Shown: positions 515 to 37,055 of the stretch, piece after piece
Layout of the letters: the number at the start of each line of letters is the position of its first letter
How positions within the stretch are numbered: position 1 is the stretch's first letter
From: an uncultured bacterium
GTDB lineage: Bacteria; Desulfobacterota; Binatia; HRBIN30; CADEER01
Length of the DNA: 64,000 nt
Direction of reading: 5' to 3'
Assembly (NCBI GenBank): GCA_965651925.1
Contig: CBFGUK010000001.1
Coordinates: 3,396-67,395, forward strand
The notes under the pieces: model-generated
Seen by the model: only the letters and a program-made list of their open reading frames with translations
Told to the model about the DNA's origin: nothing
Databases searched by the model: none
Position numbers and translations under genes: made by a program

Positions 515-2458
515 ATGTTCCCGTGTCCGCTGCGCGGCCTGCTGCTCGCGCTCCTGCTCGTCGCCCTGCCGGCGGCCGCGCAGACGACACCCGTGTCGCC
601 GTCGCGCACGCCGACCATCACGCGCACGCCGACGCGCACGGCCACGCCGCCGAACACGCCGGTGCCGACCCGCACGCAGACGGCGACGCGCACGGCGAGT
701 GCGACCCGCACCCCCTCGGCGCCGCCGACACCGACGCGCACCGGGACGCCGACGCGCACCGCCACCGCCTCGCGGACGCCGACCTGGACGCGCACGCCGA
801 CGCCGCCGGACACGCCGACACGCACCGCGACGCGCACCGGGACGGTCACGGCGACGCGCACGCCGACGAGCTCGCGCACCCCGACGCCGCCCGCGACCAG
901 CACCGCGACGCCCACCGGCACGGTCACCTTCACCCGCACGCGGACGCCGACCGCGACGCGCACACGCACCCCGTCGATCACCCCCACCGGCACGACCACC
1001 GCGACCGCGACGCCGGGCGCGGCCTTTCTCAGCGTCGACCTGTTCGCCGACCGGCTCGGCGACAACAACGACGGCACGTTCACGACCATCCTCACCGCGC
1101 TGGTCTCGGATGCGAGCGGCAATCCGGTCGGCGACGGCATCGCCGTGTCCTTCTCGCTCGCCCCGCCGCAGGCCGGGGTGCTCATCACGCCGACCGGCGC
1201 GACGAACGAGCCGCCGGCCTGCGACGTCACCAATTATGAGCTCGCGACGGGACGGCCCGTGAACCCGCAGCCGGGGTCCGCGCTCACCTGCCTGCGCTAC
1301 GCGCAGAGCCGTCAGGGCGAGGACGTCGTCGTGCGGGCCGAGGTCGTCACCGCCGACGGCGTCGTCGCGGCGCATCGCACCATCCGGCTGCCGATGGCGC
1401 CGCCGCCGTCGCCGAGCGCCACCGGCACGGCGACGGCGACCGGCACCGTGACCCAGACGGGGACGGTGACGCCGACCGGCACCGAGACCGCGACGCCGAC
1501 GATCACCGGCACGCCGACCGATACCGGCACACCGGAGAACACGGCGACGCCGACGCCGACGGCCACCGCGACGATCACCGCGACGCCCACCGAAACGCCG
1601 ACCGTGCCGATCCGCGTCGCCGCCATCGCCGGCGCGGCGCGCCCGGGCGGCGAGGCGGAAATCGCCTTCGAGCTCGCCGACGACGACGGGCTCGTGCATG
1701 GCCTGTCGTTCGACCTGCTGATCGACGAGCCGGTCTTCGACATCTTCCAGATCAGCCGCTGCCGCACCGACGCGACGCTCACCACCCATCAACTGTCGGT
1801 GTCGCTCGCGTTCGATCCGTTCGTGCCGGTCGGCAAGCGCCGCTTCCGCTTCGTGCTCGTGCAGACGGTCGGTCAGGATACCCGCGTGCGCCCCGGCCCG
1901 ATCGTGCAGTGCACGCTGCCGATCGCGGAGGACGCGCCGCTCGGCCCGACGCTGCTGCAGCTCGACCGCCTGCTCGCCGGCGATCGCGACGGCAATCTGC
2001 TCACCGGGGCGCTGATCGTGAACGACACGCTGCTCATCGATCCCGATGCGCCGCTGCCTACCGCGACGCCGACCATCACCGCGACACCGACGGCGAGCGC
2101 GACCCCGACGGCGACCGCCACGCCCACCGCCACGACCACGCCGACGGCGACCGCGACGCTGGTGCCGTCGCCGACGCCGCCACCGACCGCGACGGTGACG
2201 CACACGCTGGTGCCGTCACCGACCGCCTCGCCGACCGAAACGCCGGAACCGTCGCCGACCGCCACCCCGCCGCGCTGCGCCGGGGACTGCAACGGCGACG
2301 CGACGGTGACGATCAACGAGCTCATCACCGCGGTGAACATCGGCGCCGGCCTGCTGCCGGCCACCGCCTGCCCTGCCGCCGATCGCAACGCCGACGGCGC
2401 GGTGACGATCGACGAGCTGATTGCCGCCGTCGGCGCCGCCGCCAACGGCTGCGGCTGA
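515..2458 (+). CDS. Secreted modular protein: signal peptide, three Thr/Pro-rich linkers, cohesin-like domain and C-terminal dockerin-like (two EF-hand-like DxNxDG loops) module
   Basis: ATG 515 gives MFPCPLRGLLLALLLVALPAAAQ signal. The cohesin-like beta domain lies at aa ~370-510 (IRVAAIAGAARPGGEAEIAFELADDDGLVHGLSFDLLID). The C-terminal DCNGDATVTINELITAVN...DRNADGAVTIDELIAAV matches dockerin repeats. Upstream in-frame Met codons lack a signal peptide. Confidence 0.7.
   Translation: MFPCPLRGLLLALLLVALPAAAQTTPVSPSRTPTITRTPTRTATPPNTPVPTRTQTATRTASATRTPSAPPTPTRTGTPTRTATASRTPTWTRTPTPPDTPTRTATRTGTVTATRTPTSSRTPTPPATSTATPTGTVTFTRTRTPTATRTRTPSITPTGTTTATATPGAAFLSVDLFADRLGDNNDGTFTTILTALVSDASGNPVGDGIAVSFSLAPPQAGVLITPTGATNEPPACDVTNYELATGRPVNPQPGSALTCLRYAQSRQGEDVVVRAEVVTADGVVAAHRTIRLPMAPPPSPSATGTATATGTVTQTGTVTPTGTETATPTITGTPTDTGTPENTATPTPTATATITATPTETPTVPIRVAAIAGAARPGGEAEIAFELADDDGLVHGLSFDLLIDEPVFDIFQISRCRTDATLTTHQLSVSLAFDPFVPVGKRRFRFVLVQTVGQDTRVRPGPIVQCTLPIAEDAPLGPTLLQLDRLLAGDRDGNLLTGALIVNDTLLIDPDAPLPTATPTITATPTASATPTATATPTATTTPTATATLVPSPTPPPTATVTHTLVPSPTASPTETPEPSPTATPPRCAGDCNGDATVTINELITAVNIGAGLLPATACPAADRNADGAVTIDELIAAVGAAANGCG
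590..1015 (+). repeat. Coding low-complexity repeat: (ACG/CGC/ACS/CCG)n encoding TPTRTATP-type Thr/Pro linker 1
   Basis: Visible nucleotide-level tandem repetition (acgcgcacgccgac...) translating to TRTPTRTATPP repeats. Confidence 0.7.
1395..1612 (+). repeat. Coding Thr/Pro-linker repeat 2 (GTATATGTVTQTGTVTPTGTET...)
   Basis: Repetitive acc/acg/ccg codons; low-complexity TP-rich translation. Confidence 0.65.
2050..2275 (+). repeat. Coding Thr/Pro-linker repeat 3 (TATPTITATPTASATPTATATPTATTTPTATAT...)
   Basis: Repetitive acc/gcg/ccg codons preceding the dockerin-like module. Confidence 0.65.
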
Positions 2459-3467: not shown

Positions 3468-5591
3468 TCAGCCGTCCCCCTGATTGCCGTCGCGTCGCTC
3501 CGCCGGTCCGGCGGTGACGGCCTGATAGATCACCGCCTCCACCGGATCACTGTCGTACGACAGGTGCCGCGAGCTCGGAATGGCCGGGAACGTCGCCCGC
3601 GCCACCGGCGCGAGCGAGAGCTGCCCGGCGATCGCATCGCAGAGCTCGCGCCCTTCCGGGCTGGCGCACAGCGAGGGGCGGATGTGGATGTGACAGTCGG
3701 CGGGTGCGAGCGCGGCCTCGATCGTGTGCGGGGCGCGCGGATCGATCAGCACCGCCGAGCGCTCCGGGCCGACGTAGGTCGGCAGCACGAGGCTGCGCTC
3801 GCCGGCGAGCGCGACGTACGAGATCCGGCACCCGGCCGGCACGGACTGGAGCTGCCGGCGCATCCAGCGGTACTCGTAGTGATCGGTGGTGCGCGCCGTG
3901 ATGATCGGCAGGCCGGCGTACAGCCAGACGCCAGCCAGCGCGACGGCCGCCGTGGCGAGCAGCACGCGGGCGCGCGCCAGGGCAGCCGGCAGGAGCGCCG
4001 CCAGCGCGAGCAGCGGCATCAGCAGGTACAGCCGGTCGTAAGCCTGCTGCCAGATCCAGCTCTGCGCGTAGCCGTGACGGGTGAGCAGCAGCGCGGCAAG
4101 CGCACATCCCGCCGGCACGACGAGCCGGCGATGACGTGCGAGCAGCGCGTAGGCCGCGGCACCGACAGCCAGCCATGCGAGGGGCTGCAGCGCCGGGGGT
4201 GCCTGCGGGCGCATGATCGTGCCGGCGCGGATGTTCCCGAACACGTCGAGCAGCACGCCGCCGCTGGTGGCGACGATCACGCCGGCGCAGCACAGTGCGG
4301 CGGCGGCGGCCTGCGCGAGCGCACGCGACCAGGGCCGCGCGCCGGCGAGCAGCACCGCCGGCACGGTCGCCGCCACGCCCCACGCCGAGGGATGCGTGCG
4401 CACCGCCTGCGCGAGCAGCAGCCCCGCGGCGAGCCACGCGCCGGCACCGCGCCACGGCGCGCGGTCGTCGAGCGCGCGCGCGCCGAGCAGCAGACACGCC
4501 GCGGCCGCGGCACACAGGAGGATGAGCACCGGCAGGTACGACGGGGTGACCGCCATGCGGATGGCGACGGGATCGAGCGCCACCAGCACGCCGGCCGCCG
4601 CGGCGACGATGCGCGGCAGCCCGAGCAGGCGGGCGAGTCCGTAGGCGAGCGGCGCGAGCAGCGCCGAGAGCAGCGCGTTGGTGACGAACACCGCGCGGTC
4701 GGGCTGCTGCGGCAGCAGCGCCGCCACCGGCGCGAACAGCTCGAGGTAGCCGGGACCGTAATGGGCGATGCGCTCCGGCTCGCGCGCCGCGGCGAGAATG
4801 AACAGCGGGCCGTAGCCGTTGACGTGCAGCGGCCCCCAGGCGCCGAACGCGAGGCGCAGGAGCAGCGCGCCGGCGCCGAGCACGAGCGCGCCGCGCCGAT
4901 CGAGCGGGTCGAGCGGGCGGCGCTCGCGGCCCGCGACCAGCACCAGGACGGCGGCGAGCGGCACGAGCCAGGGGCCGCCGGGGTCGATGCCGGCGCCCAG
5001 CGGACCGATGGCGCCTGCCGCCACGAGCGCCAACGCCAGGAGCACCGCCGCCCACGGCAGCGCCGGATGCGGGACGAGCGCGAGCGCGGCGAGCAGCACG
5101 GCGGCGATGCCGACGAGCATGCCGCGCACGCCGCGCAGCATCTCGGCCGCGCGCGGCATGGCCGTCGCATCGGCATCGCCGAGCGGAATGGCGTCCGGCG
5201 CGGGCAGGCCGCCCGGGTCGCGGGCCCGGACCGCGTTGGCGAGCGCCTCGGTGACCAGCTCCCGTTCACGCGCCGGCGAGCGCGGCGTCTCGTACCCGAT
5301 GCCGAAGCTCGCCGATTCGCGGATGCCCGGCCAGCGGCCGCGCGGCAGCAGGTGCACCTCGACCGCGGCGCCATCGGCCGGCCGGCGCACGTCGAGCACG
5401 ACGTCGTTGCCACCGCCGCGCCGTATCGCATCGATGCGGAAGCCGGCTGGCAGCGGCGCGCCGCTGCTGTACGGCGCGAGCAGCGCGTGCCACGTCGGCG
5501 CGTCGCGGGGGAGAAGGACCTGGACCGCGACGGCGGCGACGAGGGCAGTCGCCGCGGCGACGCGCAGGCGGCAGGCAGCGCGCGCGCTCAC
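3468..5591 (-). CDS. Large polytopic integral membrane protein (~13 TM plus N- and C-terminal soluble domains); possible GT-C-fold glycosyltransferase
   Basis: 707-aa ORF with many hydrophobic helices (LLALALVAAGAIGPLGAG..., LLSALLAPLAYGLARLLGLP...). GTG start overlaps the stop of the upstream LLM gene (GTGA), implying translational coupling. Function is inferred from topology only. Confidence 0.5.
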   Translation of the reverse strand: MSARAACRLRVAAATALVAAVAVQVLLPRDAPTWHALLAPYSSGAPLPAGFRIDAIRRGGGNDVVLDVRRPADGAAVEVHLLPRGRWPGIRESASFGIGYETPRSPARERELVTEALANAVRARDPGGLPAPDAIPLGDADATAMPRAAEMLRGVRGMLVGIAAVLLAALALVPHPALPWAAVLLALALVAAGAIGPLGAGIDPGGPWLVPLAAVLVLVAGRERRPLDPLDRRGALVLGAGALLLRLAFGAWGPLHVNGYGPLFILAAAREPERIAHYGPGYLELFAPVAALLPQQPDRAVFVTNALLSALLAPLAYGLARLLGLPRIVAAAAGVLVALDPVAIRMAVTPSYLPVLILLCAAAAACLLLGARALDDRAPWRGAGAWLAAGLLLAQAVRTHPSAWGVAATVPAVLLAGARPWSRALAQAAAAALCCAGVIVATSGGVLLDVFGNIRAGTIMRPQAPPALQPLAWLAVGAAAYALLARHRRLVVPAGCALAALLLTRHGYAQSWIWQQAYDRLYLLMPLLALAALLPAALARARVLLATAAVALAGVWLYAGLPIITARTTDHYEYRWMRRQLQSVPAGCRISYVALAGERSLVLPTYVGPERSAVLIDPRAPHTIEAALAPADCHIHIRPSLCASPEGRELCDAIAGQLSLAPVARATFPAIPSSRHLSYDSDPVEAVIYQAVTAGPAERRDGNQGDG

Positions 5592-7004: not shown

Positions 7005-7859
7005 CTACCGGAAGAGGACTTTTGCCAGCTCGGAACGGAAGCGGTCAGCGAGCGGATCGCCGGGACCGAGGAGATCGAAGATGTCGATCATCGCCTTGCG
7101 GGCGCCGTCGTCGCGGAAGGCGCGATCGCGCTGCACGATGGCGAGATAGTGCTCGAGCGCCTCCTCGTGGTTGCCGGCGGCGGCGAGCGCCTGGGCGAGC
7201 GTGAAGCGCGCCTCGAGGTCGTCGGGATTGGCATCCACCTGCGCGCGCAGCCCGGCCTCGTCGCCGGCGCCGGACTGGCGGATGCGGATCGCCGCCGCGA
7301 GGCGATCGGCGGCCTGACGATGCGGGCCGGGGGCGACGCGGTCGAGCAGCTCGAGCGCGGCGCTGTCCTCGTCGCGGCCCGCGAGGACCGTGGCGAGGCC
7401 GACCAGCGCCGGCTCGCAGCGCGGCTCGAGCTCGAGTGCGCGGCGGAACTCGCTTTCCGCCCCGGCGACGTCGCCGGCGGCGAGCAGCGCCTCGCCGGCG
7501 GCCGCGGTCTGTTCACCGACACTCGGCAACAGCCGGGCGAGGAACTCGCGCACCGCCGGCTCGGGCTGCGCACCGACGAACTGTGCGGCGAGCTGGCCGT
7601 CGCGCAGGCCGACGACGAACGGGATGCTCTGGACGCGGAAGACGCTGGCGAGCGCCGGATTCTCGTCGATGTTCACCTTGGCGAGCACGAAGGCACCGCC
7701 GTGTTCGTCGGCCAGGCGCTCGAGCAGCGGCCCGAGCGCGCGGCATGGTCCGCACCACGGCGCCCAGAAGTCGACCACCACCGGGACCTGCCTGGACCGT
7801 TCGATGACTTGGGCTTCGAAATCCGCGTCGGTAACGTCGATGACGTGCTGTCCGGGCAT
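7005..7859 (-). CDS. Thioredoxin domain protein with C-terminal TPR repeats (YbbN/CnoX-like co-chaperone)
   Basis: WAPWCGPC thioredoxin active site near N-terminus; C-terminal TPR-like helical repeats (EALEHYLAIVQRDRAF...). Confidence 0.8.
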   Translation of the reverse strand: MPGQHVIDVTDADFEAQVIERSRQVPVVVDFWAPWCGPCRALGPLLERLADEHGGAFVLAKVNIDENPALASVFRVQSIPFVVGLRDGQLAAQFVGAQPEPAVREFLARLLPSVGEQTAAAGEALLAAGDVAGAESEFRRALELEPRCEPALVGLATVLAGRDEDSAALELLDRVAPGPHRQAADRLAAAIRIRQSGAGDEAGLRAQVDANPDDLEARFTLAQALAAAGNHEEALEHYLAIVQRDRAFRDDGARKAMIDIFDLLGPGDPLADRFRSELAKVLFR

Positions 7860-7887
7860 GGAAGTCAGGATGCCAGATGCAGGTGAA

Positions 7888-7915
7888 GCTGTCAGCGGTC
7901 AGCCGTCGGCGGTCA
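7888..7915. repeat. Tandem heptanucleotide array (GCTGTCA GCGGTCA GCCGTCG GCGGTCA), left arm of element E, 29 nt upstream of trx-TPR start
   Basis: Direct reading; period 7; inverted relative to the 8021-8062 array. Confidence 0.75.
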
Positions 7916-8062: not shown

Positions 8063-8063
8063 G

Positions 8064-8760: not shown

Positions 8761-9027
8761 CTAGGCCGCAACCGCGCGGATGCCGGTGCCGCCATTGACG
8801 CTGCTCCGCTCGACGCCGTCCGCCTCGACGGGTCCGAGGAACCACTCCATCGGCCGGCCGGTGTGGCGGGCGATGCGGAACAGAACCTCGGTCGAGGGGA
8901 TGCGGCCGTTCATGTAGTTGTAGACGGCCGACAGGCTCACGCCGATGTCGTACGCAAACGCCTTCGGCTCGTCTGCCACCACTTCGCGCAGCCGCTCAGC
9001 CACAAAATTCGCATCGAGCCCTTCCAT
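8761..9027 (-). CDS. XRE/Cro-C1-type helix-turn-helix transcriptional regulator (88 aa)
   Basis: KAFAYDIGVSLSAVYNYMNGRIPSTEVLFRIARHTG HTH motif; AGGAGG RBS 7 nt upstream of ATG. Confidence 0.7.
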   Translation of the reverse strand: MEGLDANFVAERLREVVADEPKAFAYDIGVSLSAVYNYMNGRIPSTEVLFRIARHTGRPMEWFLGPVEADGVERSSVNGGTGIRAVAA

Positions 9028-9143
9028 CGTCGAATCCTCCTTTCACAGTCGTTCGTGCTGCTCCCGCGCGCCGCGTGAGCTGACGGCTTCTCCGCCGGCC
9101 GGCCGGATCGCTCGCCGCCCTGGTCCTTCCGCGCCGAAGGGCC

Positions 9144-9187
9144 AAAAAAAAGGGCCACCGGTTTTCACCGGTGGCCCTTTGGGTTTG
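9144..9187. terminator. Strong bidirectional Rho-independent terminator (A-run, GGGCCACCGG-TTTTCA-CCGGTGGCCC hairpin, T-rich tail)
   Basis: Perfect 11-bp GC-rich stem flanked by AAAAAAAA and TTTGGGTTTG; reads as hairpin plus U8 on the minus strand, downstream of ddl. Confidence 0.85.
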
Positions 9188-9209
9188 AGATTCCTGGGGT
9201 GTGTTGCTG

Positions 9210-9380
9210 CTAGGAGACCCCTCCCGCGGGACCACCGGACGGTACCGGTCGAATGGCGATGCGCGCCTTCTTGGCGGCCGTCGCCACCGAACCCGTGTCC
9301 GTCTGCGCGCACGCGAACCACATCGCGCCGCCGTCGGCGATTAGATGATTGGTCGTGTGCGTGAACATGATCTGCATGGG
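9210..9380 (-). CDS. Possible small ORF (55 aa) between terminator and ddl; could instead be non-coding
   Basis: MQIMFTHTTNHLIADGGAMWFACAQTDTG...; no recognisable family, weak RBS. Confidence 0.2.
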   Translation of the reverse strand, partial: PMQIMFTHTTNHLIADGGAMWFACAQTDTGSVATAAKKARIAIRPVPSGGPAGGVS

Positions 9381-10643: not shown

Positions 10644-10674
10644 GTGCCGCCGGTTCTAGCGCCGGGGCAGCGGC

Positions 10675-10874: not shown

Positions 10875-10882
10875 CCGCCAAC

Positions 10883-26653: not shown

Positions 26654-29600
26654 TCAGGCGCGGACGACGCGCTGGTAGATCTTCGGCAGCTCGCGCGGCA
26701 GCGCGGTGATGTCTTCAATGACCATGTACCGCGTCTCGTCGCACATCTGCCGCAGGTAGTCGTGCCCGGCCTTGTCGACGGTGATGCAGAACGGGGTGAC
26801 GCCCGCCGCCTCCGCCTCGCGCAGCGCGACCGCCGTGTCGCGGATGCCGTAGACGTTGCTGCGCCGGTCCTGGCCGTAGTCGTAGTCCTGCGGGAACCCG
26901 TCGCTGAGCAGGAACAGATGCTTCACGCGCGCCGTCACGGCGCCGAGCTTCTCGATCGCGTGCCGCAACGCCGTGCCCATGCGCGTGCTGCGCTTGGGCT
27001 CGATGCCGCCGAGGCGCCCCTTGACCGTCGCGCTCAGGGATTCGCTGAACGACTTGACGCGGTAGACCTCGACGCGGTCGCGGCCGTGCCCGGAAAAACC
27101 GTAGATCGCATACGCATCGCCGATCTCCTCCAGCGCCTCGGCCATGATCACCAGCGTTTCCTTGGTGACGTCGATGATGCGCCGCGCCCGGCCGCCGCCG
27201 CCACGCGGCGCCCCGGTCGTCGCGGGTGACTCGAAGGGCTCGTCGGTCGAGGCGCTCATGTCGACCAGGAACAGCGTCGCGACGTCGCGCTCCTCGCGCT
27301 TGCGCGCCACGTACACGCGGCTCGACGGCGCCTGGCCGGCGCGGCGGTCGATGCGCGCCGCGATCGCCGCATTGAGATCGAAGTCCTCGCCGTCCTCGAG
27401 GCCGCGGACGGTGCGGTACATCTCCGGGCGGACGCGCTGGAACTGGCGGCGCACCTCGGGAATCAGACGCGCGTAATCGCCCAACGCCCGGTTGAAGAAC
27501 TCGCCCGAGTCGCCGGCGACGCTGAGCTCGTAGAGTCGGCACCAGCCGCTGCGATAGTCGCCGATGTGGTAGTCCCACTCGTCGTACGCGAAGTGCTCGC
27601 CGGCGCTGTCCTCGGCCCGCAGGCGGCGCGCGATGCGGCGACCGCCCGCATCGCCGTCGCCGAGCAGCTCGCGCAGGGCATCGAGCTGTTCGCTCGGCAG
27701 CTTGCCGATGAGATCGGTGATGAAGAGCCCGAGCCCCTCGACCTCCTGGCCGGTGCCCTGGGTGATCTTCAGGTTGCCGCTCTCGAGCAGGCGCTGGATC
27801 TCCTCCGCCGACAGCGGCTGCGCGCCGCCGGCGCCCTCGAGCTCGTCCGGTGACAGCTGCAGCGACGGACGGTCCGCCTCGTCAGCGATCGGTTCGCCGC
27901 CGGGCGGCGCCGCCTCGGTGTGCGGCGCCGTCCCGGCCAGGGCCGGTCCTTCGTCGTCGCCGTACATGTCGAGCAGCGCATCGCCGGTGAGCCGGTCGAG
28001 CGCGAAGCCATCGAGATCGCGATCGCTTTCGACATAGGCGGGCTGCGCAGCGGCGAGCGCGCCGGCGAGTGACTCGGCGACGCGCAGGGCATCCCCGACG
28101 GTCGCCTCGGGCGCCGCCAGCGGCGCGACGCAGCGCGCGATCAGCCGCGCGCCGGGCTCGTCGAGCCAGCGCGGCAGCGGGCCGGGCGCGGCGCCGCGCA
28201 GCACGAGGCAGAACACGGCATCGAGCCGGCCGGTGCGCGGCGGTGCGGGCTGCATCGCCCAGCGCTCGAGCAGGCGCTCCGCGACCCAGCGTCCCTCGGC
28301 GGCCAGCCCGCGATACTCGGCACACAGCCGATGATGGACGCGCACGCCTTCGGCGAGCAGGAACAGCTCCTCGAGGGCCTCCGGCCGGTCGGGATCGGTG
28401 ACGAAGCGGAACAGATCGCCGCCCGGCGGCAGCTCGGGATCGGCGGGTGCGGCGGGGTCGGTGAACGCGTAGGTGCCGAACTCGCGCCGGCCGGCGAGCT
28501 GCGCGGCAAGGAACCGGTAGAGACGCAGGTTGTCCTCGTGGGTACCGAGCCAGTCGATGCGCAGCGGCAGCGCGATCTCGTTCTCGCCCGGGAACTCCTC
28601 GAGCGGCGGGCGCAATCGCATGACGTCGAAGGCGCGGATGCTCGCCGACGCGCCGCTCAGCATCTGCACGTACTTGCGCAGCAGGCCCTGCGCTTCCTCG
28701 AGCGTCGCGGCGATCGAGGAGGCGCGCAGCGTCTTGCGGCTGGTCCGCGATTCGAGCGCAAAGAAGGCGAGCCCGGCGTCGGGGTTGTCCGCCGCGAGCG
28801 TGAGCCCGACGTCGAACCACTCGCGCACGCGCGGCGGATCGGCATCCTCGTAGACGCGCGGCAGCGAGCGCAGTGCCGCGACGACGGCGGCCGGACAGGC
28901 GGCGGCGACGCGGGCGAGCTCGCCCAGCCCTTCGAGGCGATGCGCGGACGGCACCTGCAGCAGGAGCGCGCCGGCGACCGGCGCCACCTCGGCGACCGGA
29001 CCCGCCACGCGCCGCGCGGCCTGGTGCAGCACGTCGAGCAGGGCGCCGCGCTCCGCACCGTCGAGCGGCGCCAGCGCATCGGGCAGCGCGCGGTAGAGCG
29101 CGAGCGCGTCGCGCGGGGCCGCGGGGGCGAGCGCGATGACCGTGCGCAGCAGCGCGCACTGTTCGTCGGCGGTCCAGCCCTGCACGCTGCGCGGCAGCGC
29201 GCCGAAGAACTCGCGTTCCTTGACCGCCGGCAGCAGCGCCGCGCCGGCGCCGGCCCACAGCCGATAGGCCGCCGGGGCGAGCGCGAGCACCGCGTGCGGG
29301 GCGGCGGCGAAGTAGGACTGGGCCAGGAACTCGCCCTGCCAGCCGCGCTGGCCGTAGAGGTCGCCGCCGATCGCCACCCAGTCGCGCAGCCGGGCGAGGC
29401 CGTCGGCGCGGCGCAGCAGGGAGGACGTCGAGCGGAAGAAGATCGCGGCCAGCTTGCCCGAGGTCGCGGCGAGCTCGCGGCCGAGCGCGCACCAGGCGGC
29501 GGCCGTCTCGAGACCGCCGCGGCCGAAGGCGGCGGGCGACACCGTGAAGAACGCGACGGCCCCGTCGCGGCACAGCGGCTCGTCGGTCGCCAGACGCTCG

Positions 29601-29875
29601 CCGAGGGCCAGCCAGCGCTCGAAGCCGTCCGTGCCGAAGGCCGTCCAGACCTGGGCGGCGCGCCGGTAGAAGCGCTGCGCGAGCACCGCCGAGACGGCCG
29701 CGAGGCGATCGCCGTCGGCGAGCAGCCGGGCATGCACCGCCGGGCCGAGCGCCTGCGCGGCGGCGTGCGCGGCGGCGCCGTCGGGATCGTCGAGCAGGTG
29801 GCTGCCGAGCCACACGCCGCGCAGCGCGTCCGGCTTGCGGTCAGCCATGGTGCGGCGGGCGTGCCGTGCCGGCAC
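26654..29875 (-). CDS. CbbO/NorD-like protein: long helical N-terminal region plus C-terminal von Willebrand factor A domain (MIDAS DMSASTDE); 1073 aa
   Basis: C-terminal ~230 aa matches the NorD/CbbO vWA domain (LFLVDMSAS...LLSDGFPQDYDYG...CITVDKAGHDYL). Start is either GTG 29873-75 or ATG 29836-38. Confidence 0.75.
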   Translation of the reverse strand: MPARHARRTMADRKPDALRGVWLGSHLLDDPDGAAAHAAAQALGPAVHARLLADGDRLAAVSAVLAQRFYRRAAQVWTAFGTDGFERWLALGERLATDEPLCRDGAVAFFTVSPAAFGRGGLETAAAWCALGRELAATSGKLAAIFFRSTSSLLRRADGLARLRDWVAIGGDLYGQRGWQGEFLAQSYFAAAPHAVLALAPAAYRLWAGAGAALLPAVKEREFFGALPRSVQGWTADEQCALLRTVIALAPAAPRDALALYRALPDALAPLDGAERGALLDVLHQAARRVAGPVAEVAPVAGALLLQVPSAHRLEGLGELARVAAACPAAVVAALRSLPRVYEDADPPRVREWFDVGLTLAADNPDAGLAFFALESRTSRKTLRASSIAATLEEAQGLLRKYVQMLSGASASIRAFDVMRLRPPLEEFPGENEIALPLRIDWLGTHEDNLRLYRFLAAQLAGRREFGTYAFTDPAAPADPELPPGGDLFRFVTDPDRPEALEELFLLAEGVRVHHRLCAEYRGLAAEGRWVAERLLERWAMQPAPPRTGRLDAVFCLVLRGAAPGPLPRWLDEPGARLIARCVAPLAAPEATVGDALRVAESLAGALAAAQPAYVESDRDLDGFALDRLTGDALLDMYGDDEGPALAGTAPHTEAAPPGGEPIADEADRPSLQLSPDELEGAGGAQPLSAEEIQRLLESGNLKITQGTGQEVEGLGLFITDLIGKLPSEQLDALRELLGDGDAGGRRIARRLRAEDSAGEHFAYDEWDYHIGDYRSGWCRLYELSVAGDSGEFFNRALGDYARLIPEVRRQFQRVRPEMYRTVRGLEDGEDFDLNAAIAARIDRRAGQAPSSRVYVARKREERDVATLFLVDMSASTDEPFESPATTGAPRGGGGRARRIIDVTKETLVIMAEALEEIGDAYAIYGFSGHGRDRVEVYRVKSFSESLSATVKGRLGGIEPKRSTRMGTALRHAIEKLGAVTARVKHLFLLSDGFPQDYDYGQDRRSNVYGIRDTAVALREAEAAGVTPFCITVDKAGHDYLRQMCDETRYMVIEDITALPRELPKIYQRVVRA

Positions 29876-29923
29876 GCGGCGACCAGCGGGCGGCGTGCGG
29901 GCCCCCTGCCGCGCGCCGGCGCA

Positions 29924-30733
29924 TCAGCCCCCGAAGATCGAGCCGACGAGCTCGTCGATCGCGCGCTGACTCTCGAGATCGTCGGTGAGCGACTTCGCCA
30001 CCGAGACCTGGCAGGCGCGGCGCGCCGGCACGCCGCGCGCGATGAGCTGCCCGGCATAGACGAGCAGGCGCGTGCTGACCCCTTCCTCGAGCCCGCTCGC
30101 CTTCAGGTGGCGCACCTTCTCGCCGAGCTTGGCGAGATCCATCGCCACCTCGAGCGGCGCGCCGCTCTCGTGCGCGATGACCTGCGCCTCCTTGTCGCGC
30201 GGCGGGTAGTCGAAGTCGATGGTGACGAACCGCTGCCGCGTCGAGTGCTTCAGGTCCTTGAGCACGCTCTGGTAGCCGGGGTTGTAGGAGATCACGAGCA
30301 GGAAATCGGGGTGCGCCTCGATGATCTCGCCGCGCTTGTCGATCGGCAGGATGCGGCGGTGGTCGGTGAGCGGGTGGATGAGCACCGTCGTGTCCTTACG
30401 CGCCTCGACGATCTCGTCGAGGTAGCAGAACGTCCCGGCGCGCACCGCCTGGGTGAGCGGCCCGTCGACCCAGACGGTCTCGTCGCCCTTGATCAGGTAG
30501 CGGCCGACGAGATCGCTGCCGGTGAGGTCCTCGTGGCAGGCGACGGTGATCAGGTTGCCGGCGATGCCGTGTTCGCCGCGCCCGCGCAGCGTGTGCGCCA
30601 TGTACTCGACGAAGCGCGTCTTGCCGCAGCCGGTCGGACCCTTGAGCAGGATCGGCAGGCGGCAGGCATAGGCGGCCTCGAAGATCGCCACCTCGTCGCC
30701 GATCGGCAGGTAATACGGCTGCGGCTCGCTCAC
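29924..30733 (-). CDS. CbbQ/NorQ/NirQ/GvpN-family MoxR-type AAA+ ATPase
   Basis: [46 protein letters not shown] (Walker A) and [13 protein letters not shown] (Walker B); start overlaps the stop of the upstream gene (ATGA). Confidence 0.85.
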
Positions 30734-31857
30734 GGCGTGATCGTCTCCATGGTCTCCCCCGACTGGGCGTCGACCAGCACGACGGTGATCGCCGTGCCGC
30801 CGCCGTGCAGCGCCGCCGCGTCGCGCACGCCGCCACGCAGGCGGTCGATGAACTTGTCGCGTACCGGTCCCGGCATGCTCTGCATCGGGAACTCGCGCAG
30901 CACGACGCGCACCGCGTCCTCGGCGGGCCAGTCGATGCGCTCGATGCGCGAGCCGGCGATCGGATGGCCGCGGAAGACCTTCTCGACGTCGCCGCGCAGC
31001 GTGCTGCCCGGCGTCGGGGCACCCGCGTCACCGGGAGCGGCCGGCGCGCTCAGCCGGGCGAGCAGGGCATCGATCCGCCGGCGCGTCGGATCGTCCGGGG
31101 CGATCTCGCGCGCCCGGCGCAGCGCCGCGAGCGCCGCGGCATCATCGCCTTTGGCGCGCTGGGCGAGCGCGAGATTGAACTGCGCCTGGAAGAAATCGGG
31201 GTCGCTGCGCAGCACGGCCTGATAGGCCTCGAGCGCCTCGTCGACCTGGCGGTCGGCGAGCAGCATCGTCGCGAGGTCGGTCTGCACGCTGAGGTCGTCG
31301 GGCTTCACGGCCAGATAGCGGCGGTAGAACTCCATCGCGCGCTTCGGCTCGTTGCGGTCGTAGGCGATGTTCCCCAAGCCCCGCAGCGCATCGGGATCCT
31401 CGGGCGCCGCGTCGAGGATGTGCGTGTAGGTCGCGGTCGCGTCGGTGAGATAGGCGGGATCGACCTGCCCGGCGCGATACTGCACGAAGCCGAGCTGGCG
31501 CCAGGCCTCGAGATCCTGCGGCTTTTCCTTCGCAGTCTCGACCATCTTCGCGATCACGTTGCGGACGTCGGCCGGCACCTCGAGCGGCGGGTGATCGGCC
31601 GGCATCGGCGCGCCCGACCCCGCGGTCCGCGGCGGGGGAACGTTCGGCGGATTCGCGTTCAGGCGGCCGACGGCGACCGCCACCGCCCCGACGACGAGCA
31701 CGCTCGCGACGACGAACAGCGGTGCGGCGCGGACGGCGAATCGCGGGCGACGGGCCGGTGCGCCGGTCCCGCCACCGACCGGGCGGCCGCACGCCGTGCA
31801 GAAGCGCGCGCTGGCCGGCAAGGCGGTGCCGCACTCGGTACAGAATCGATCAGCCAT
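30730..31857 (-). CDS. Zinc-ribbon / TM / TPR-repeat protein (375 aa), first gene of the operon ahead of the CbbQ-like and CbbO-like genes
   Basis: [28 protein letters not shown] (double CxxC zinc ribbon), hydrophobic segment [24 protein letters not shown], then TPR-like repeats ([33 protein letters not shown]...). Confidence 0.6.
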
Positions 31858-31974: not shown

Positions 31975-32535
31975 ATGCGTCGAGGATGGTCGTTGGCCGG
32001 GGTTCTGCTGGCCCTGTGTTTCAGCTCGTGCACGTGCAGCAGCAGCACCCCGGAAGTGCCGAAACCGACCCCCGTGGCACGCGGCGGCTGGATGGGGAAG
32101 CCCTCGCCGCGCTCGCTGCCCGATCGCGGCCCGGGCATGGCCGTGACCCCGGGTGATGTCGAGGCGCGCGAGGCACCGACGCCGCCACCGACGCCCGAGC
32201 AGGCGGTCCTTCCCGACGACTTCCCGTCCGACGTGCCGGTCTTCGAGGGCGCCGAGGTCGCGGCCGTGCAGAAGCTCGCCAATGGCGCCAGCAACGTCGT
32301 CTTCACCGTCGAGGATGCCGACGCGCCGCAGGTGTTCAGCTTCTACAAGAACGACATGCGCGGCAACGGCTGGGACGTGGAGCAGGAGTACGAGGGCAAG
32401 GAACAGTCGTTCCTCTCGTTCAAGAAGGGCAACACGATCACCAACGTCAGCGTGACGAAGGACCCGAAATCCGGGAAGCGGGTCGTCGCGGTGATGTACT
32501 ACGACGAGCAGCCGCTGCCGTTCGACGAGTTCTGA
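31975..32535 (+). CDS. Putative lipoprotein / secreted protein (186 aa)
   Basis: RBS GGGAGGACGAGGAACCAATG; signal MRRGWSLAGVLLALCFSSC (Cys for possible lipidation); Pro-rich linker then a small globular domain. Confidence 0.55.
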   Translation: MRRGWSLAGVLLALCFSSCTCSSSTPEVPKPTPVARGGWMGKPSPRSLPDRGPGMAVTPGDVEAREAPTPPPTPEQAVLPDDFPSDVPVFEGAEVAAVQKLANGASNVVFTVEDADAPQVFSFYKNDMRGNGWDVEQEYEGKEQSFLSFKKGNTITNVSVTKDPKSGKRVVAVMYYDEQPLPFDEF

Positions 32536-32548: not shown

Positions 32549-34123
32549 GTGCGGCCCCTCGCGCCGGGCCTCTGTGCCCTGCTGCTGATCCTGGTGCCGG
32601 TCGCGGCACCGGTCGGCGCCACGACGGTGGTGCCGATGCGCGTCCCGGAGCTGACCGCGGCCTCGATCGGCGCGGTGCGCGGCCAGGTGCTGCGCATCGC
32701 CTCCGCCGCCGCCCCCGTTTCGGGGGCGATCTCGACCTACATCACCCTGCTCGTCGACGAGGTACTGTTCGGCCCGTTCGCGCCCGGCGAGCTCGTGCTG
32801 CGCGAGCTCGGCGGGCGCGTCGGCGGGCGCGCCGAGCGGGTCTTCGGCCAGCCGGAGTATTCCGTCGGCGAACGCGTGCTCGTCTTCCTCAGCCGCCACG
32901 CCGACGGCACGCTGCGCACCACCGAGATGAGCCTCGGCAAGCTCAGGCTGCGCGACGCATTCGGCGGCACGCGCGCGCAGCGCACGCGCGTCCCCGGCGT
33001 GCGCACCCTCGTGTCCAAGTCGGTGGCCATCGATCTGCCGTATGCCACCCTGCGCGAGCGCATCCGCCGCGCCGCCCCATCCGCGGGCACGCGGCTGCCG
33101 ATCGTCCAGCGCCCGGAGCTCGGCGGTCTGCGCCTCGAGGTGCAGCCGGCGTTCCGGCTGCTGCAGCCGTTCTCCCGCTGGTTCGAGCCCGACGCGGGCA
33201 TGCCGGTCGGTTTCCTCGTCGACACCACCGGCGACGCGACGCTCGGCGCCGCGGTGTCCCGCGCGGCCGTCGGCGCCGGCCTCGCGGCCTGGAGCGGACT
33301 GCCGTTCTCGCCGCTCTCCCTGTACGACGCCGGCGACACCGATCCGGCGCCGTTCCCCAACTGCCCGAGCGCGAGCCGCATCGTGTTCAACGATCCGTTC
33401 GAGGAGATGGGCGATCCGCACAACTGCCGCGGCACGCTGGCGATCGGCGGCTTCTGCGAGAACCCCGAGGACACCATCGTCGTCGGGCCGCGCACGTTCC
33501 AGCGCATCACCGCGGGCAAGGTGACGTTCAACGACGGCTGGGGCGGCTGCCCGATCTGGACGCCGTGCAACCTCGCCGAGATCGCCACCCACGAAATCGG
33601 CCATACCCTGGGCTTCAACCACTCCGAGGATCCCACCGCCACGATGGCGGAGGTGGCGCATTTCGACGGCCGCTGCTCCTCCCTCGCCGAGGACGACCGC
33701 GACGCCGTGCTGGCGGTGTATCCCTTCCCGCCCTCGCCGAGCGCCACGCCGACGGTCACCGACACGCCGGCGCCGACCACCACGCCGAGCGTGACCGCCA
33801 CGCCCTCGCGCACCGGCACGATCACGCGCACGCCGTCGCGCACGCTCACGCCGACGCGTACGGCATCGCGGACGCGGACGGCGACGCCGACCCGTACCCC
33901 CCCGCCGACGCGCACGGCGACCGGCCCGACCCGCACGCCGACGGCGACGGCGACCGTCACCGCACCACCGACGGGCACCCCCAGCGCCACCGCCACGCGG
34001 ACACCATCTCCCCCGGCCTCACCGACAGCCACCGTCACCGTCACGCCGCGTCCGCCACGGCCCTGGATCGCCGTGGTGGCCGAGGCGTTGCGCCGGACGC
34101 TCGAGCGCTCGGACGCGCCGTGA
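32549..34123 (+). CDS. Secreted metzincin (matrixin/M10-like) zinc metalloprotease with C-terminal Thr/Pro-rich linker
   Basis: GTG start, signal peptide. HEIGHTLGFNHS (HExxHxxGxxH) is followed by the TMA Met-turn. Paralogous to 34440..37055. Confidence 0.75.
   Translation: MRPLAPGLCALLLILVPVAAPVGATTVVPMRVPELTAASIGAVRGQVLRIASAAAPVSGAISTYITLLVDEVLFGPFAPGELVLRELGGRVGGRAERVFGQPEYSVGERVLVFLSRHADGTLRTTEMSLGKLRLRDAFGGTRAQRTRVPGVRTLVSKSVAIDLPYATLRERIRRAAPSAGTRLPIVQRPELGGLRLEVQPAFRLLQPFSRWFEPDAGMPVGFLVDTTGDATLGAAVSRAAVGAGLAAWSGLPFSPLSLYDAGDTDPAPFPNCPSASRIVFNDPFEEMGDPHNCRGTLAIGGFCENPEDTIVVGPRTFQRITAGKVTFNDGWGGCPIWTPCNLAEIATHEIGHTLGFNHSEDPTATMAEVAHFDGRCSSLAEDDRDAVLAVYPFPPSPSATPTVTDTPAPTTTPSVTATPSRTGTITRTPSRTLTPTRTASRTRTATPTRTPPPTRTATGPTRTPTATATVTAPPTGTPSATATRTPSPPASPTATVTVTPRPPRPWIAVVAEALRRTLERSDAP
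33735..34050 (+). repeat. Coding Thr/Pro-linker repeat (PTVTDTPAPTTTPSVTATPSRTGTITRTPSRTLTPTRTASRTRTATPTRTPPPTRT...)
   Basis: Nucleotide-level acg/ccg/acc tandem repetition. Confidence 0.65.
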
Positions 34124-34439: not shown

Positions 34440-37055
34440 ATGACCCGGATCACAGAAGGCAAAGGGCGCGTCGGGTGGGCCGTAGTGGCGCTGGTGCTCC
34501 TCGCCTTCGGCCGTGTCGAGGCGAGCACGTTCGTGCTCATGGACGAAGCCGATCTCGCCGCGCGATCGGTCGCGGCGGTCCGGGGCACGGTGACCGAGAT
34601 CACCTCCGGGATCGACGGCGCCGGCGACGGCGTGCACACCTACGTGCGCATCGCGCCGCAGCAGGTCGTCCTCGGCGCGCTGCCCGCCGGCGACATCGTC
34701 CTGCGCGAAACCGGCGGCCGCGTCGACGGCCTCAGCGAGTGGGTCTTCGGCAGCCCGGAGTATCACGTCGGCGAGGAGGTGCTGGTCTTCGTCAGCGCCA
34801 CCGGCGACGGCACGCTGCACACCACCGGCCTGGCGATGGGCAAGTTCTCCGTCAGCCGCGACGCGACCGGCCGCATCCGGGCGATTCGCCGCCTCGGCGA
34901 GGGCGTCTCCGTCTGGGATCCGCAGACCGGAACGTTCGAGGAGGCGCCCGGCGATGAGGAATACGATCTCGACGCGATGCAGCGCGCGCTGCGCGACGCG
35001 GCCGGGCGGCTGACGACCAAGTCGCGGCGCCAGGCGACCGCGGTGCGCGCGCTGCCGGTGGAGATGACCCGGCTGCGGATGCGCGAGCAGCACGCGGCGT
35101 TCACGTACCTCAGCACGCCCTCGCGCTGGTTCGAGCCCGACGAGGCGCAGCCGATCGCCTTTCTGATCGACGGCACGGGAGACGTCGGGCTCGGTCCGGT
35201 CACGTCGCGGCAGGCGATCACCGACGCGTTCGCCGCCTGGACCAACGTGCCGAATTCCGACCTGACGCTGATCGACGGCGGCACGCTCGCCGCGCCGGTC
35301 ACGTTCGCGGGGTGCAGCGGCGGCAACCGCGTCATGTTCAACGACCCGTTCAACGAAATCGCGGACCCGAGCGGCTGCAGCGGCGTACTCGCCATCGGCG
35401 GCTTCTGCGCGTCATCGGAGACGCGGGTCATCAACGGGACGAACTTCCGCCGCATCCGCGTCGGCAAGGTCACCTTCAACAACGGCTGGTCGAAGTGCGG
35501 CGGCTGGGGCCGCTGCAGCGTCGCCGAGGTGGCGACGCACGAGCTCGGCCACACGCTCGGCTTCGGCCACTCGCCCGATCCCGGCGCGACGATGTACGCC
35601 AGCGCGCACTTCGACGGCCGCTGCGCTGCGCTGCGCCAGGATGATCTCAACGCCGTCGCCTTCGTCTATCCGAGCCTCGCCAGCCCGACGCCGACGCGCA
35701 CGTTCACGCCACTGCCGCCGACGCCGACCGCGACGCGCACCCGCACCGCCACGGCGACGGTGCCGACGCCGACCGTTCCGCCACCGACCGCGACCCGCAC
35801 GGCCACCCGCACGGCGACCGCGACCATCCCGCCGGCGACGGCGACGGTCACGCCGACCGTCCCGACACCGACCGCCACGGCGACCCGCACGCCGACCGCA
35901 ACCGTTCCCACCGCCACCGCGACCGCCACCCGCACGGTGCCGCCGACGGCGACCACGACCCCGACCCGCAGCATGACCGCGACGCGGACGGCGACGCGCA
36001 CGCGCACGGCTACCCGGACCGCGACGATCCCGCCGACGGCGACCCGCACCGCGACGGCGACCCACACCGCGGTGCCGCCGACCGCGACGGCCACGCCGCT
36101 GCGCATCTCGGTGCGCGGGCGCGTGCGGTACTACGCCGGCGGCCAGGGGGTGCCGGGCGTGACCATGACCCTGCGCGGCCAGATGGTCGCCGCGGTGGAT
36201 ACAGGGATCACGGGCGAGTACGCGTTCGACGCCGTGCCGGCCGGCAGGTTCTGCGAGGTCGCGGCGAACAAGGCGCGCGACTTCGGCAACGCCGTCTCAC
36301 CGCTCGATGCCGCGTTCGTCCTGCAGCACGTCGCCCGGCTGCGTGCGCTCGATAGCGATCAGCAGCTCGCCTGCGACGTCACCGGCGACGGCACGGTGAG
36401 CACGCTCGATGCGGCACGGCTGCTCGAGTTCAGCGTCGGCGCAATGGCGCGCATGCCGCTCGCCGAGCTGTGCGACGGCGACTGGCTGTTCGTCCCCGAT
36501 CCGGAACCGGCAGTGCAGCCACTCGCCATCTCGCCGTCGATCGACGGCGGCCACTGCGAGGCCGGCAAGATCATGCTCGAGGATCTGCTCACTGAAGCCG
36601 AGGAGCAGAACTTCCGCGCGCTGCTGATCGGTGATTGCACCGGCAACTGGCAGACCGGCGCCGGGGCTGCGCTGCGCGCACGCGCCGGTCGCGGAACCCC
36701 GGTCGTGCGGCTCGGCCGTGTCGTCGTCCGCGACGGCGTGGCGAGAGTCCCTGTCCACGTACGTGCGCGCGGCGGCTTCACCGCCCTCGACCTGCACCTG
36801 CGCTACGATGCCGCCGCCCTCACACCGGCCGCGGCGCAGCTGCGCCGCCCGGCGGACAGCGCCATCATCAGCATGCACGCCCCGGAGCCCGGCACGCTGC
36901 GGGTCGCGCTCGCGAGCGGCACGGTGCTCGACCGGCGCCGCGGTTCGCCGCTGCTGATCGAGTTTGCCGTCGCCGGCTCCCCCGCGAACACGGCGGTGCA
37001 GCTCGATGCGGCGTTCGTCGACGAGGCGCCCGCGACCCTCCGCGCGGTGCGCTGA
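34440..37055 (+). CDS. Secreted multidomain metzincin protease: M10-like catalytic domain, Thr/Pro linker, CarbopepD-reg-like beta domain, dockerin-like EF-hand loop and C-terminal cohesin-like domain
   Basis: Signal peptide MTRITEGKGRVGWAVVALVLLAFG; HELGHTLGFGHS with Met-turn ATMYAS; DVTGDGTVSTLDAARLLEF dockerin-like loop; C-terminal VVRLGRVVVRDGVARVPVHVRARGGFTALDLHLRYDAAAL cohesin-like. Confidence 0.7.
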   Translation: MTRITEGKGRVGWAVVALVLLAFGRVEASTFVLMDEADLAARSVAAVRGTVTEITSGIDGAGDGVHTYVRIAPQQVVLGALPAGDIVLRETGGRVDGLSEWVFGSPEYHVGEEVLVFVSATGDGTLHTTGLAMGKFSVSRDATGRIRAIRRLGEGVSVWDPQTGTFEEAPGDEEYDLDAMQRALRDAAGRLTTKSRRQATAVRALPVEMTRLRMREQHAAFTYLSTPSRWFEPDEAQPIAFLIDGTGDVGLGPVTSRQAITDAFAAWTNVPNSDLTLIDGGTLAAPVTFAGCSGGNRVMFNDPFNEIADPSGCSGVLAIGGFCASSETRVINGTNFRRIRVGKVTFNNGWSKCGGWGRCSVAEVATHELGHTLGFGHSPDPGATMYASAHFDGRCAALRQDDLNAVAFVYPSLASPTPTRTFTPLPPTPTATRTRTATATVPTPTVPPPTATRTATRTATATIPPATATVTPTVPTPTATATRTPTATVPTATATATRTVPPTATTTPTRSMTATRTATRTRTATRTATIPPTATRTATATHTAVPPTATATPLRISVRGRVRYYAGGQGVPGVTMTLRGQMVAAVDTGITGEYAFDAVPAGRFCEVAANKARDFGNAVSPLDAAFVLQHVARLRALDSDQQLACDVTGDGTVSTLDAARLLEFSVGAMARMPLAELCDGDWLFVPDPEPAVQPLAISPSIDGGHCEAGKIMLEDLLTEAEEQNFRALLIGDCTGNWQTGAGAALRARAGRGTPVVRLGRVVVRDGVARVPVHVRARGGFTALDLHLRYDAAALTPAAAQLRRPADSAIISMHAPEPGTLRVALASGTVLDRRRGSPLLIEFAVAGSPANTAVQLDAAFVDEAPATLRAVR
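35690..36100 (+). repeat. Coding Thr/Pro/Ala-linker repeat (PTPTRTFTPLPPTPTATRTRTATATVPTPTVPPPTATRTATRTATATIPPATATVTPTVPTPTATATRTPTAT...)
   Basis: Long run of acg/ccg/gcg codon repeats; the opposite strands yield Arg-rich artefact ORFs. Confidence 0.65.

Follow-up and report, generated by a model that had tools for sequence, protein, structure and literature searches.

The window analysed here, a 64,000-nt stretch of contig CBFGUK010000001.1 (positions 3,396 to 67,395) from an uncultured soil bacterium, is part of a Binatia genome with two separate loci encoding secreted proteins that combine long Thr/Pro-rich linkers with cohesin- and dockerin-type modules. The first locus encodes protein A (515..2458, 647 residues), and the second encodes proteins B (32549..34123, 524 residues) and C (34440..37055, 871 residues). 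All three genes, like every feature below for which no strand is given, lie on the + strand. As predicted from sequence, protein A is a non-catalytic secreted protein with an Ig-like domain, a cohesin, and a C-terminal Ca2+ EF-hand module (hereafter the A-type tag), and B and C are predicted to be Sec-exported, Cys-rich M10 zinc endopeptidases with long flexible linkers and a family-specific N-domain. The domain identities of the modules in A, B, and C are solid, and their pairing and biological role are putative. With the evidence evenly balanced, we propose, as the likeliest interpretation, that the modules serve a non-cellulosomal cohesin-dockerin assembly system for secreted Binatia proteins, in which A would be an adaptor and C would carry a fused pair.

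The cohesin domain of protein A spans 1598..2044 (residues 362-510). In an AlphaFold2 (AF2) model of residues 362-647, this domain forms 9-10 strands with a predicted local distance difference test score (pLDDT) of about 83-96, mostly above 90. A Foldseek search of the PDB with this middle domain returned only cohesins among the best 45 matches (E-values down to 7.5e-9, template-modelling (TM) scores up to 0.79), and type I cohesins were the best structural matches. The domain was superimposable on the nine-stranded beta jelly-roll of solved cohesins, and the cohesin-fold matches also include the CLIPPER adhesin domain (9ifr). At the sequence level, the cohesin-like domains of A and C had no PDB match as single sequences, and their profiles gave cohesins as weak top matches (E 0.03-0.1). 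Two of the 25 aligned A-family sequences match Pfam Cohesin, with a best E-value of 4.1e-6. When the A-cohesin profile (A3) was run against 1.84 billion representatives, 280 relatives were retrieved, 85 of them with E ≤1e-10. The profile matched P0300 (E 2e-23) and P0386 (E 2.3e-8), and the matched regions of these two proteins scored 65 and 57 bits on PF00963, above its threshold. As several relatives, these two among them, exceed the Pfam Cohesin cutoff over just the stretch that the profile matches, the A domain is a divergent true cohesin. The cohesin-like segment proposed for protein A in the initial annotation was thus substantiated by the model, by Foldseek, and by transitive homology.

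The A-type tag (2270..2455, residues 586-647) is a disulfide-stapled EF-hand pair with dockerin topology. It holds two canonical loops, DCNGDATVTINE and DRNADGAVTIDE, which lie 32 residues apart and are each followed by a helix, with pLDDT above 90. The consensus of the family is C.GDCNGDG.V.INELI..VNIALG......C...D.NGDG.VTIDELIAAV..AL.GC; each EF loop has 12 residues, the twelfth being Glu, and 99 of 120 tag copies contain the four conserved Cys. In the model, the order loop-helix, short helix, loop-helix is completed within about 60 residues, without an entering helix and with the termini held together. Pfam EF-hand_1 scored 16.7-20.1 bits on the tag of A, under its cutoff, and Dockerin_1 was matched by only 4 of 25 aligned A-family sequences, with E 1.4e-3 or weaker. 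Membership of the tag in PF00404 was considered and rejected, as the profile search against the PDB returned calmodulin-like EF-hands; A itself had no Dockerin_1 match. Since the sequence is calmodulin-like but the topology is that of a dockerin, we call the tag dockerin-like and keep it out of PF00404. Hence, the dockerin-like loop described earlier in A stands as an EF-hand pair with dockerin topology and falls as a Pfam Dockerin_1 match.

The presence of cohesin and dockerin-like modules on one chain, also claimed in the initial annotation, proved recurrent and conserved. Among the 146 newly retrieved representatives whose cohesin is of the A type, the A-type tag is present in 81. The relatives include one protein with five cohesins and a C-terminal tag (P0302), three with four cohesins (P0304, P0305, and P0324), one with three (P0317), and one with the order dockerin-cohesin-dockerin-cohesin (P0300); a tag directly N-terminal of a cohesin also occurs. 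The multi-cohesin relatives that were looked up are listed as 'hypothetical protein' or without a name in the sources. These combinations of tag and cohesin are built in the manner of adaptor scaffoldins, and their co-occurrence is our strongest indirect evidence that the two modules belong together.

About 100 further proteins carry an A-type tag. A GTDB scan with one single peptide pattern resulted in 139 confirmed tag loci, nearly all in Binatia-type metagenome-assembled genomes (MAGs), with 7-9 or more loci per individual Binatia genome. The tag lies 13 residues or fewer from the stop codon in 52 of 79 loci. Its carriers comprise FG-GAP, Ig-like, lactonase-type beta-propeller, beta-helix, BNR, cytochrome P460, lipase, and protease proteins, among others. 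Seven matrixin relatives end in a Thr/Pro linker and an A-type tag, so proteases of the matrixin family are plausible tag clients in other genomes. Five GTDB MAG records titled Mycobacterium sp., Terriglobales, Myxococcales, or Thermodesulfobacteriota (L019, L024, L072, L020, and L018) bear a Binatia-type tag with 54-64% identity; these records are probably mis-binned or mis-named.

Protein C ends in a module of a different kind (residues 554-871). From its N-terminus, the module comprises a transthyretin-like (CarboxypepD_reg-like) beta-sandwich (36099..36275, residues 554-612), a dockerin (36276..36473, residues 613-678), a Cys-rich beta subdomain with a connecting loop (36474..36698, residues 679-753; pLDDT 84-97 in the strands and 69-73 in the loop), and a cohesin (36699..37052, residues 754-871). 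We found 29 homologues of the module, and their alignment has four nearly invariant Cys; in the Cys-rich subdomain, the segments C..DW.FVP, C..G, and GDCTGNW are near-invariant. The AF2 model built on this alignment has a mean pLDDT of 92.2 and a predicted TM score (pTM) of 0.90, which indicates that the domains pack into one compact body instead of being strung out like beads. In Foldseek against the PDB, the best 47 matches of the module were almost all cohesins, with E-values down to 2.6e-6.

Pfam Dockerin_1 (PF00404, cutoff 22.9 bits) scored 26.3 bits on the full protein C and 28.2 bits on the module, and it matched 29 of the 30 aligned sequences of the module family. The dockerin is nevertheless atypical, with a canonical second loop, DVTGDGTVSTLD, and a degenerate first one; the PDB entry 8x39 matches it by sequence and structure. 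Pfam Cohesin scored 13.8 bits on the last domain, below the threshold of 24.1. It matched 8 of 19 aligned sequences of this C-terminal domain family, C included, with a best E-value of 2.2e-5, and was the only recurring family; for C, the sequence link to recognised cohesins consists of sub-threshold matches in relatives. The transthyretin-like domain fell below the PF13620 gathering threshold (32.3 bits). Both the cohesin-like and the dockerin-like segment suggested for C are therefore real domains, the former by its fold and the latter by a Dockerin_1 score above threshold. The Pfam models named for checking in the initial annotation gave a divided result: Peptidase_M10 (B and C) and Dockerin_1 (C) were above cutoff, and Cohesin (none in A, 13.8 bits in C) and CarboxypepD_reg were not.

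In some homologues of the C module, a linker and further domains take the place of the cohesin. The module is also found behind a DUF4082 domain, an alpha/beta hydrolase, and apparently a beta-helix enzyme. As it sits on varied catalytic domains and its cohesin is replaceable, we regard it as a mobile unit. In L087 (4595..6873), an open reading frame (ORF) for a Pel9A-like beta-helix protein is directly followed by a 290-residue C-type module with dockerin and cohesin. The two probably form one gene, which would place the C module on non-protease enzymes as well.

The cohesins of A and C belong to independent families. Kinship between them was tried and rejected (hhalign probability 1.9%), and their dockerin types are likewise unrelated by sequence; consequently, A and C are not obviously one system. 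In the 64-kb window, there are no further copies of any cohesin, dockerin, tag, or protease module.

For the first locus, the proposed assembly system would work as follows. Protein A would be a small adaptor scaffoldin whose cohesin binds the Cys-stapled tag of many secreted Binatia proteins, including some matrixin paralogues in other genomes, and its own tag would plug A into another cohesin. Exoproteins would thereby be assembled non-covalently and Ca2+-dependently outside the cytoplasm. The dockerin-cohesin pair of C, orthogonal to that of A, most likely forms a rigid unit at the C-terminus by packing in cis, and this unit might stabilise the protein or offer a cohesin face to a partner. 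A wider version of this proposal, which we put forward only tentatively, is a lineage-wide, previously undescribed extracellular system in Binatia, in which the tag on many exoproteins plugs into a divergent cohesin family that ranges from single-cohesin adaptors to five-cohesin scaffoldins, with a second, orthogonal fused unit on matrixins such as C. It is possible, if rather doubtful, that such a lineage-wide system is a cellulosome-like organiser of the exoproteome in a presumably Gram-negative, uncultured phylum, put to a use other than plant cell-wall degradation.

Several observations weigh against cohesin-dockerin assembly. Protein A has no match to Pfam Cohesin (PF00963, cutoff 24.1 bits) or to Dockerin_1. 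The tag profile, compared with the PDB, retrieved calmodulin-type EF-hands (E 3e-7) and no dockerin among the 60 matches listed. The AF2 chain holding the cohesin and tag of A reached a pTM of 0.53 with a disordered linker and no confident docking, and cis docking of the tag onto the cohesin was set aside since this single chain is uninformative. A link between A and B/C is unsupported because the module types are unrelated, the loci are 30 kb apart, and B has neither module. No anchoring protein or secretion system was identified. Finally, Peer and colleagues are said to have found in 2009 that dockerin-like modules outnumber cohesins in many non-cellulosomal organisms, with unclear partners. 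The calmodulin-like profile, the missing Pfam matches, and the undocked model would all fit modules that are structural only and do not pair, the cohesin folds acting as spacers or in adhesion, like those of fibrillar adhesins or TMEM132, and the tag as a Ca2+-dependent stabilising, sorting, or envelope-binding element. So would the CLIPPER domain among the cohesin-fold matches and the mostly C-terminal position of the tag, which recalls sorting domains. Against this stand the strong enrichment of the tag on A-type cohesin proteins, the tandem arrays of three to five cohesins, which are hard to explain without a ligand, and the dockerin topology of the tag, built from loop-helix units without an entering helix; moreover, no sorting-signal model of NCBIfam fits the tag. 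We consider this structural explanation unlikely, although worth keeping in mind.

The initial annotation had favoured another arrangement, in which cohesin and dockerin on one chain drive A and C to polymerise head to tail into a cell-surface protease scaffold. A and C each do carry both modules, the long flexible linker of A would permit binding in trans, and relatives with the order Doc-Coh-Doc-Coh exist. In C, however, the loop between the Cys-rich subdomain and the cohesin is only about 15-20 residues long, and the rigid unit (pTM 0.90) favours cis; judging by this model, dockerin and cohesin as one unit fit cis packing at least as well as head-to-tail polymerisation. Protein A has no protease domain, and neither of its modules is related to its counterpart in C. 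None of the three proteins was found to have an anchor for the membrane or the cell wall, and in characterised systems the dockerin of a scaffoldin usually does not bind the cohesins of the same scaffoldin. Head-to-tail polymerisation of A and C thus appears improbable, and nothing supports a protease scaffold in which A, B, and C polymerise by themselves at the cell surface. Still more remote is the idea that the three ORFs are high-GC artefacts, chance frames through low-complexity DNA without real domains. The window has about 72% G+C, so long spurious ORFs overlap on every strand, and the antisense frames of the linkers are likewise high in G+C at third codon positions (GC3). However, the GC3 of the A, B, and C frames is 0.92-0.94 end to end, globular parts included, the homologues of like architecture number dozens to hundreds, the structure models are confident, and the genes were called independently on other assemblies; for protein C, a separate call of 871 residues exists on an ENA contig with the same locus. 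The homologues and models refute the artefact, and the three ORFs are coding, as first annotated.

Export and linkers hold for all three proteins of both loci. As read from the translations, the N-termini look like Sec signal peptides, in which a basic n-region is followed by a hydrophobic stretch and a cleavage site of the AxA type. The signal peptide of A (515..580, residues 1-22; MFPCPLRGLLLALLLVALPAAAQ) has a charged n-region, a Leu-rich h-region, and the site ...LPAAAQ/TT; that of B covers 32549..32620 (residues 1-24, site ...APVGA/TTVV) and that of C covers 34440..34523 (residues 1-28, site ...GRVEA/STFV). Thr/Pro-rich stretches of 70-160 residues occur in A (about residues 16-175, 291-375, and 503-592), B (384-511), and C (405-559), and their DNA consists of degenerate tandem repeats of 6, 12, or 18 nt. 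The signal peptides and long Thr/Pro linkers attributed to the three proteins are accordingly seen in the translations. The linkers would act as extended spacers, possibly O-glycosylated. A 707-residue polytopic membrane protein, encoded on the - strand 1 kb downstream of gene A (3468..5591), scored 24.7 bits on Pfam PMT (cutoff 22.7), the family of dolichyl-phosphate-mannose protein mannosyltransferases (glycosyltransferase fold GT-C). From its sequence, this PMT-like product is a candidate O-glycosyltransferase for the Thr/Pro linkers. In L005, the PMT-like gene is not next to the A orthologue.

Between its signal peptide and its tag, protein A alternates linkers and globular domains. Linker 1 (581..1024, residues 23-170) has at least 50% Thr plus Pro per 30-residue window, repeats of 12, 18, and 48 nt, and a GC3 of 0.96. 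It is followed by the Ig-like globular domain (1025..1402, residues 171-296), which has two conserved Cys, matches Pfam Big_1 weakly over residues 186-232 (18.1 bits, under the cutoff), and is kept in about 20 orthologues. Linker 2 (1403..1597, residues 297-361) leads to the cohesin, and linker 3 (2045..2269, residues 511-585), with pLDDT below 50 over residues 533-581 and more confident ends, leads to the tag. About 24 orthologues have the order signal peptide, linker, Ig-like domain, linker, cohesin-like domain, linker, C-terminal module, several of them in Candidatus Binatia MAGs. Gene A lies 30 kb from B and C in a conserved context of its own, between a luciferase-like gene and a MaoC-type dehydratase gene, and both its architecture and the surrounding gene order are kept in other genomes. 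A gene of the DsbA family lies two genes upstream of the A orthologue elsewhere (L005, 8507..9181; L006, 916..1590), and a thioredoxin-TPR protein is encoded near A in the window (7005..7898, - strand). These neighbours fit disulfide formation in the Cys-stapled modules, although the proximity may be coincidence. The description of the three proteins as paralogues did not hold for A, which shares only linker composition with B and C; BLASTP outside the low-complexity linkers found nothing (best E 2.3), and A was dismissed as their paralogue.

B and C themselves are tandem paralogues, as they are 44% identical over 401 residues (E 6e-99). The matrixin (M10) catalytic domain of B (33149..33724, residues 201-392) contains HEIGHTLGFNHS and the Met-turn ATMAE, and that of C (35100..35675, residues 221-412) contains HELGHTLGFGHS and the Met-turn ATMYA. 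The zinc motifs are HEIGHTLGFNH in B (33590..33622) and HELGHTLGFGH in C (35538..35570), with Ser next in both. Pfam Peptidase_M10 (PF00413, cutoff 24 bits) gave 37.4 bits for B and 41.5 bits for C (residues 251-410), and the PDB sequence of matrix metalloproteinase (MMP) 1 aligned to the segment with HExxHxxGxxHS, the Met-turn, and DD..Y (E 1.1e-8 for C). With these motifs and an M10 score above cutoff, the matrixin-like cores noted at the outset were borne out. The N-domain and catalytic core together have more than 421 relatives, and those with a name are called matrixin family metalloproteases, from Binatia, Deltaproteobacteria, and Myxococcales MAGs. The NCBIfam model MXAN_2677_2678 scored 30-37 bits against a cutoff of 250.

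Upstream of the catalytic domain, the N-terminal domain and a variable stretch cover 32621..33148 in B (residues 25-200; N-domain hidden Markov model E 1.7e-47), which aligns with C, and 34524..35099 in C (residues 29-220; E 4e-57). The conserved N-domain, first put at about 250 residues, came out shorter: the pre-catalytic region has about 200 residues, made up of a conserved Cys-free core (residues 29-165) and a variable stretch. No Pfam family and no PDB sequence matched the N-domain. The mature N-terminus T-T-F-V (TTFV/STFV) is nearly invariant in the family and directly follows the AxA site. B and C have no cysteine-switch propeptide (PRCGxPD), as there is no Cys between the signal peptide and the catalytic domain; the cysteine switch defines MMP latency, not the Pfam M10 family. 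The invariant TTFV N-terminus of the N-domains (32621..33030 and 34524..34934) recalls inhibitors whose N-terminus enters the active site of a metzincin. A latency domain like that of TIMP was considered and is unsupported: the PDB profile search gave none, Pfam NtA matched 2 of 24 sequences faintly (E 0.14), and hhalign with a TIMP-2 sequence gave a probability of 0.3%.

Downstream of the catalytic domain, B continues with a Thr/Pro linker (33725..34057, residues 393-503) and an amphipathic C-terminal tail (34058..34120, residues 504-524; PRPWIAVVAEALRRTLERSDAP), and C continues with a Thr/Pro linker (35676..36098, residues 413-553) and its module. Protein B has neither a cohesin nor a dockerin, and the A-type tag is absent from B and C. 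The C-termini of the matrixin family are modular and hold TSP3 repeats, a PPC-like domain, a linker with an amphipathic tail, a linker with a Cys-stapled EF-hand pair, or, rarely, the C module. A B-type tail, with the consensus P..WLD.LL.ALR and the motif P..W[LIV]..[LV][LV].A[LV]R, lies within 30 residues of the C-terminus in 29 of 120 listed matrixin relatives and also in the syntenic orthologue. Possible roles of this tail are those of a docking peptide, of a sorting signal, and of a helix that acts on membranes.

Directly upstream of B lies the gene of a putative 186-residue lipoprotein (31975..32535; MRRGWSLAGVLLALCFSSCTCSSS), for which Pfam, NCBIfam, and PDB searches gave nothing informative. 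Its lipobox candidates, LALC and FSSC, are both off the consensus [LVI][ASTVI][GAS]C, and FSSC is kept in the orthologue. The gene order Zn-ribbon/TPR, putative lipoprotein, B, C, YjbQ, SDR, LexA-like S24 peptidase recurs in L004, a 328-kb ENA contig, and the lipoprotein-B-C trio is therefore a conserved cluster. Thus, the earlier placement of a lipoprotein gene before both proteases was confirmed in position and by synteny in a second genome, and the lipoprotein assignment itself rested on a non-canonical lipobox. The lipoprotein could conceivably act on the proteases as an inhibitor or chaperone in the periplasm, but nothing here supports such a role. The C orthologue in L004 (8961..11431) is split over two frames (8961..10211 and 9707..11431), probably through indel errors of a long-read assembly, and owing to this split the database protein P0005 (476 residues) is truncated. 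Upstream of the cluster, on the - strand (24208..31027), are genes for a PriA helicase, a 1089-residue VWA/DUF58 protein, and a MoxR/CbbQ-type AAA_5 ATPase. The PriA, VWA, and AAA_5 families also lie ahead of the cluster in L004, with two gene calls in the VWA region.

Of the known non-covalent interactions between proteins, cohesin-dockerin binding is one of the strongest, and cellulosomes as well as many synthetic-biology scaffolds are built on it. Should the modules of Binatia pair, protein engineering would gain two new orthogonal pairs, of which one is disulfide-stabilised. The scaffoldin principle would then extend to a broad exoproteome that is not cellulolytic, in a phylum widespread in soil and sediment and known from metagenomes alone, and dozens of secreted proteins per genome now listed as 'hypothetical' would acquire a functional handle. 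Without pairing, the result would remain useful, with ordinary secreted matrixin-type proteases and a modular surface protein whose domains are now correctly assigned.

Non-cellulosomal cohesins and dockerins are well known (Peer et al. 2009, as cited in passages of PMC8542988 and PMC6487960). In Archaeoglobus fulgidus, the adjacent genes ORF2375/2376 encode a non-cellulosomal pair with tight binding (PMC9705933). Dockerin-bearing peptidases are known in cellulosomes and cellulosome-like systems (PMC12484212, PMC8542988), and cellulosome-like systems acting on polypeptides or mucin have been described (PMC12484212, PMC8542988, PMC12997984). A non-cellulosomal use of the module pair, as invoked in the initial annotation, is thus already established in A. 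fulgidus, Clostridium perfringens, and Cloacimonadota. We found no published link between Binatia or Binatota and cohesin or dockerin, and Binatia is mentioned in none of the 10 papers that a broader search listed.

The closest architectural counterparts of protein A are adaptor scaffoldins, such as ScaA and ScaB of Acetivibrio cellulolyticus and ScaA of Ruminococcus flavefaciens, which are likewise non-catalytic and secreted and have cohesins, Pro/Thr linkers, and a C-terminal dockerin; relatives of A with three to five tandem cohesins and a tag also resemble scaffoldins. Unlike these adaptors, A has a single cohesin and no carbohydrate-binding module, no carbohydrate-active enzymes (CAZymes) are encoded nearby, and the host is a member of Binatia rather than a clostridial Firmicute. 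Its tag differs from scaffoldin dockerins by Glu at loop position 12, by two predicted disulfides, and by scores below Pfam Dockerin_1. As for a cellulosome sensu stricto, the window holds single cohesins only and no CAZyme, the multi-cohesin relatives being elsewhere. The A. fulgidus pair and the glycosidase/toxin complexes of C. perfringens (PDB 2xdh, 2jh2, 2vo8, and 2w1n) carry cohesins and dockerins on secreted non-cellulolytic proteins, as here, and the cohesin structures of both species were the top structural matches. In contrast to them, the catalytic partner is an M10 protease, and in C a transthyretin-like domain is joined to the dockerin and cohesin in a single compact unit. For the archaeal pair, binding is proven (PMC9705933), whereas the Binatia modules are known from sequences and predicted structures.

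In Ca. Stygibacter (Cloacimonadota, PMC8542988) and in the Limousia 'mucinolysome' (PMC12997984), dockerin-tagged peptidases and hydrolases are inferred to assemble on cohesin scaffolds, which includes an uncultured non-Firmicute phylum. Their modules were found by standard annotation (InterProScan in PMC8542988), for which those of A are too divergent; Stygibacter has a giant multi-cohesin scaffoldin, and the Binatia tag clients are mainly beta-propeller, FG-GAP, and beta-helix proteins. The S8 double-dockerin protease of C. thermocellum (8x39) and a cysteine peptidase with X-Doc of R. flavefaciens combine, like C, a protease with a dockerin after an Ig-like X-type module. However, C is a metzincin rather than a serine or cysteine peptidase and has a cohesin in the same chain. 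With MMP-1 and other matrixins, a name borne by hundreds of bacterial relatives, B and C share HExxHxxGxxHS, the Met-turn, and DD..Y; unlike MMPs, they have a Cys-free N-domain with invariant TTFV instead of a cysteine-switch propeptide. Compared with all these systems, two elements are new: the EF-hand tag, which is disulfide-stapled and has Glu-12, together with its cohesin family; and the transthyretin-like/dockerin/Cys-rich/cohesin unit on a matrixin.

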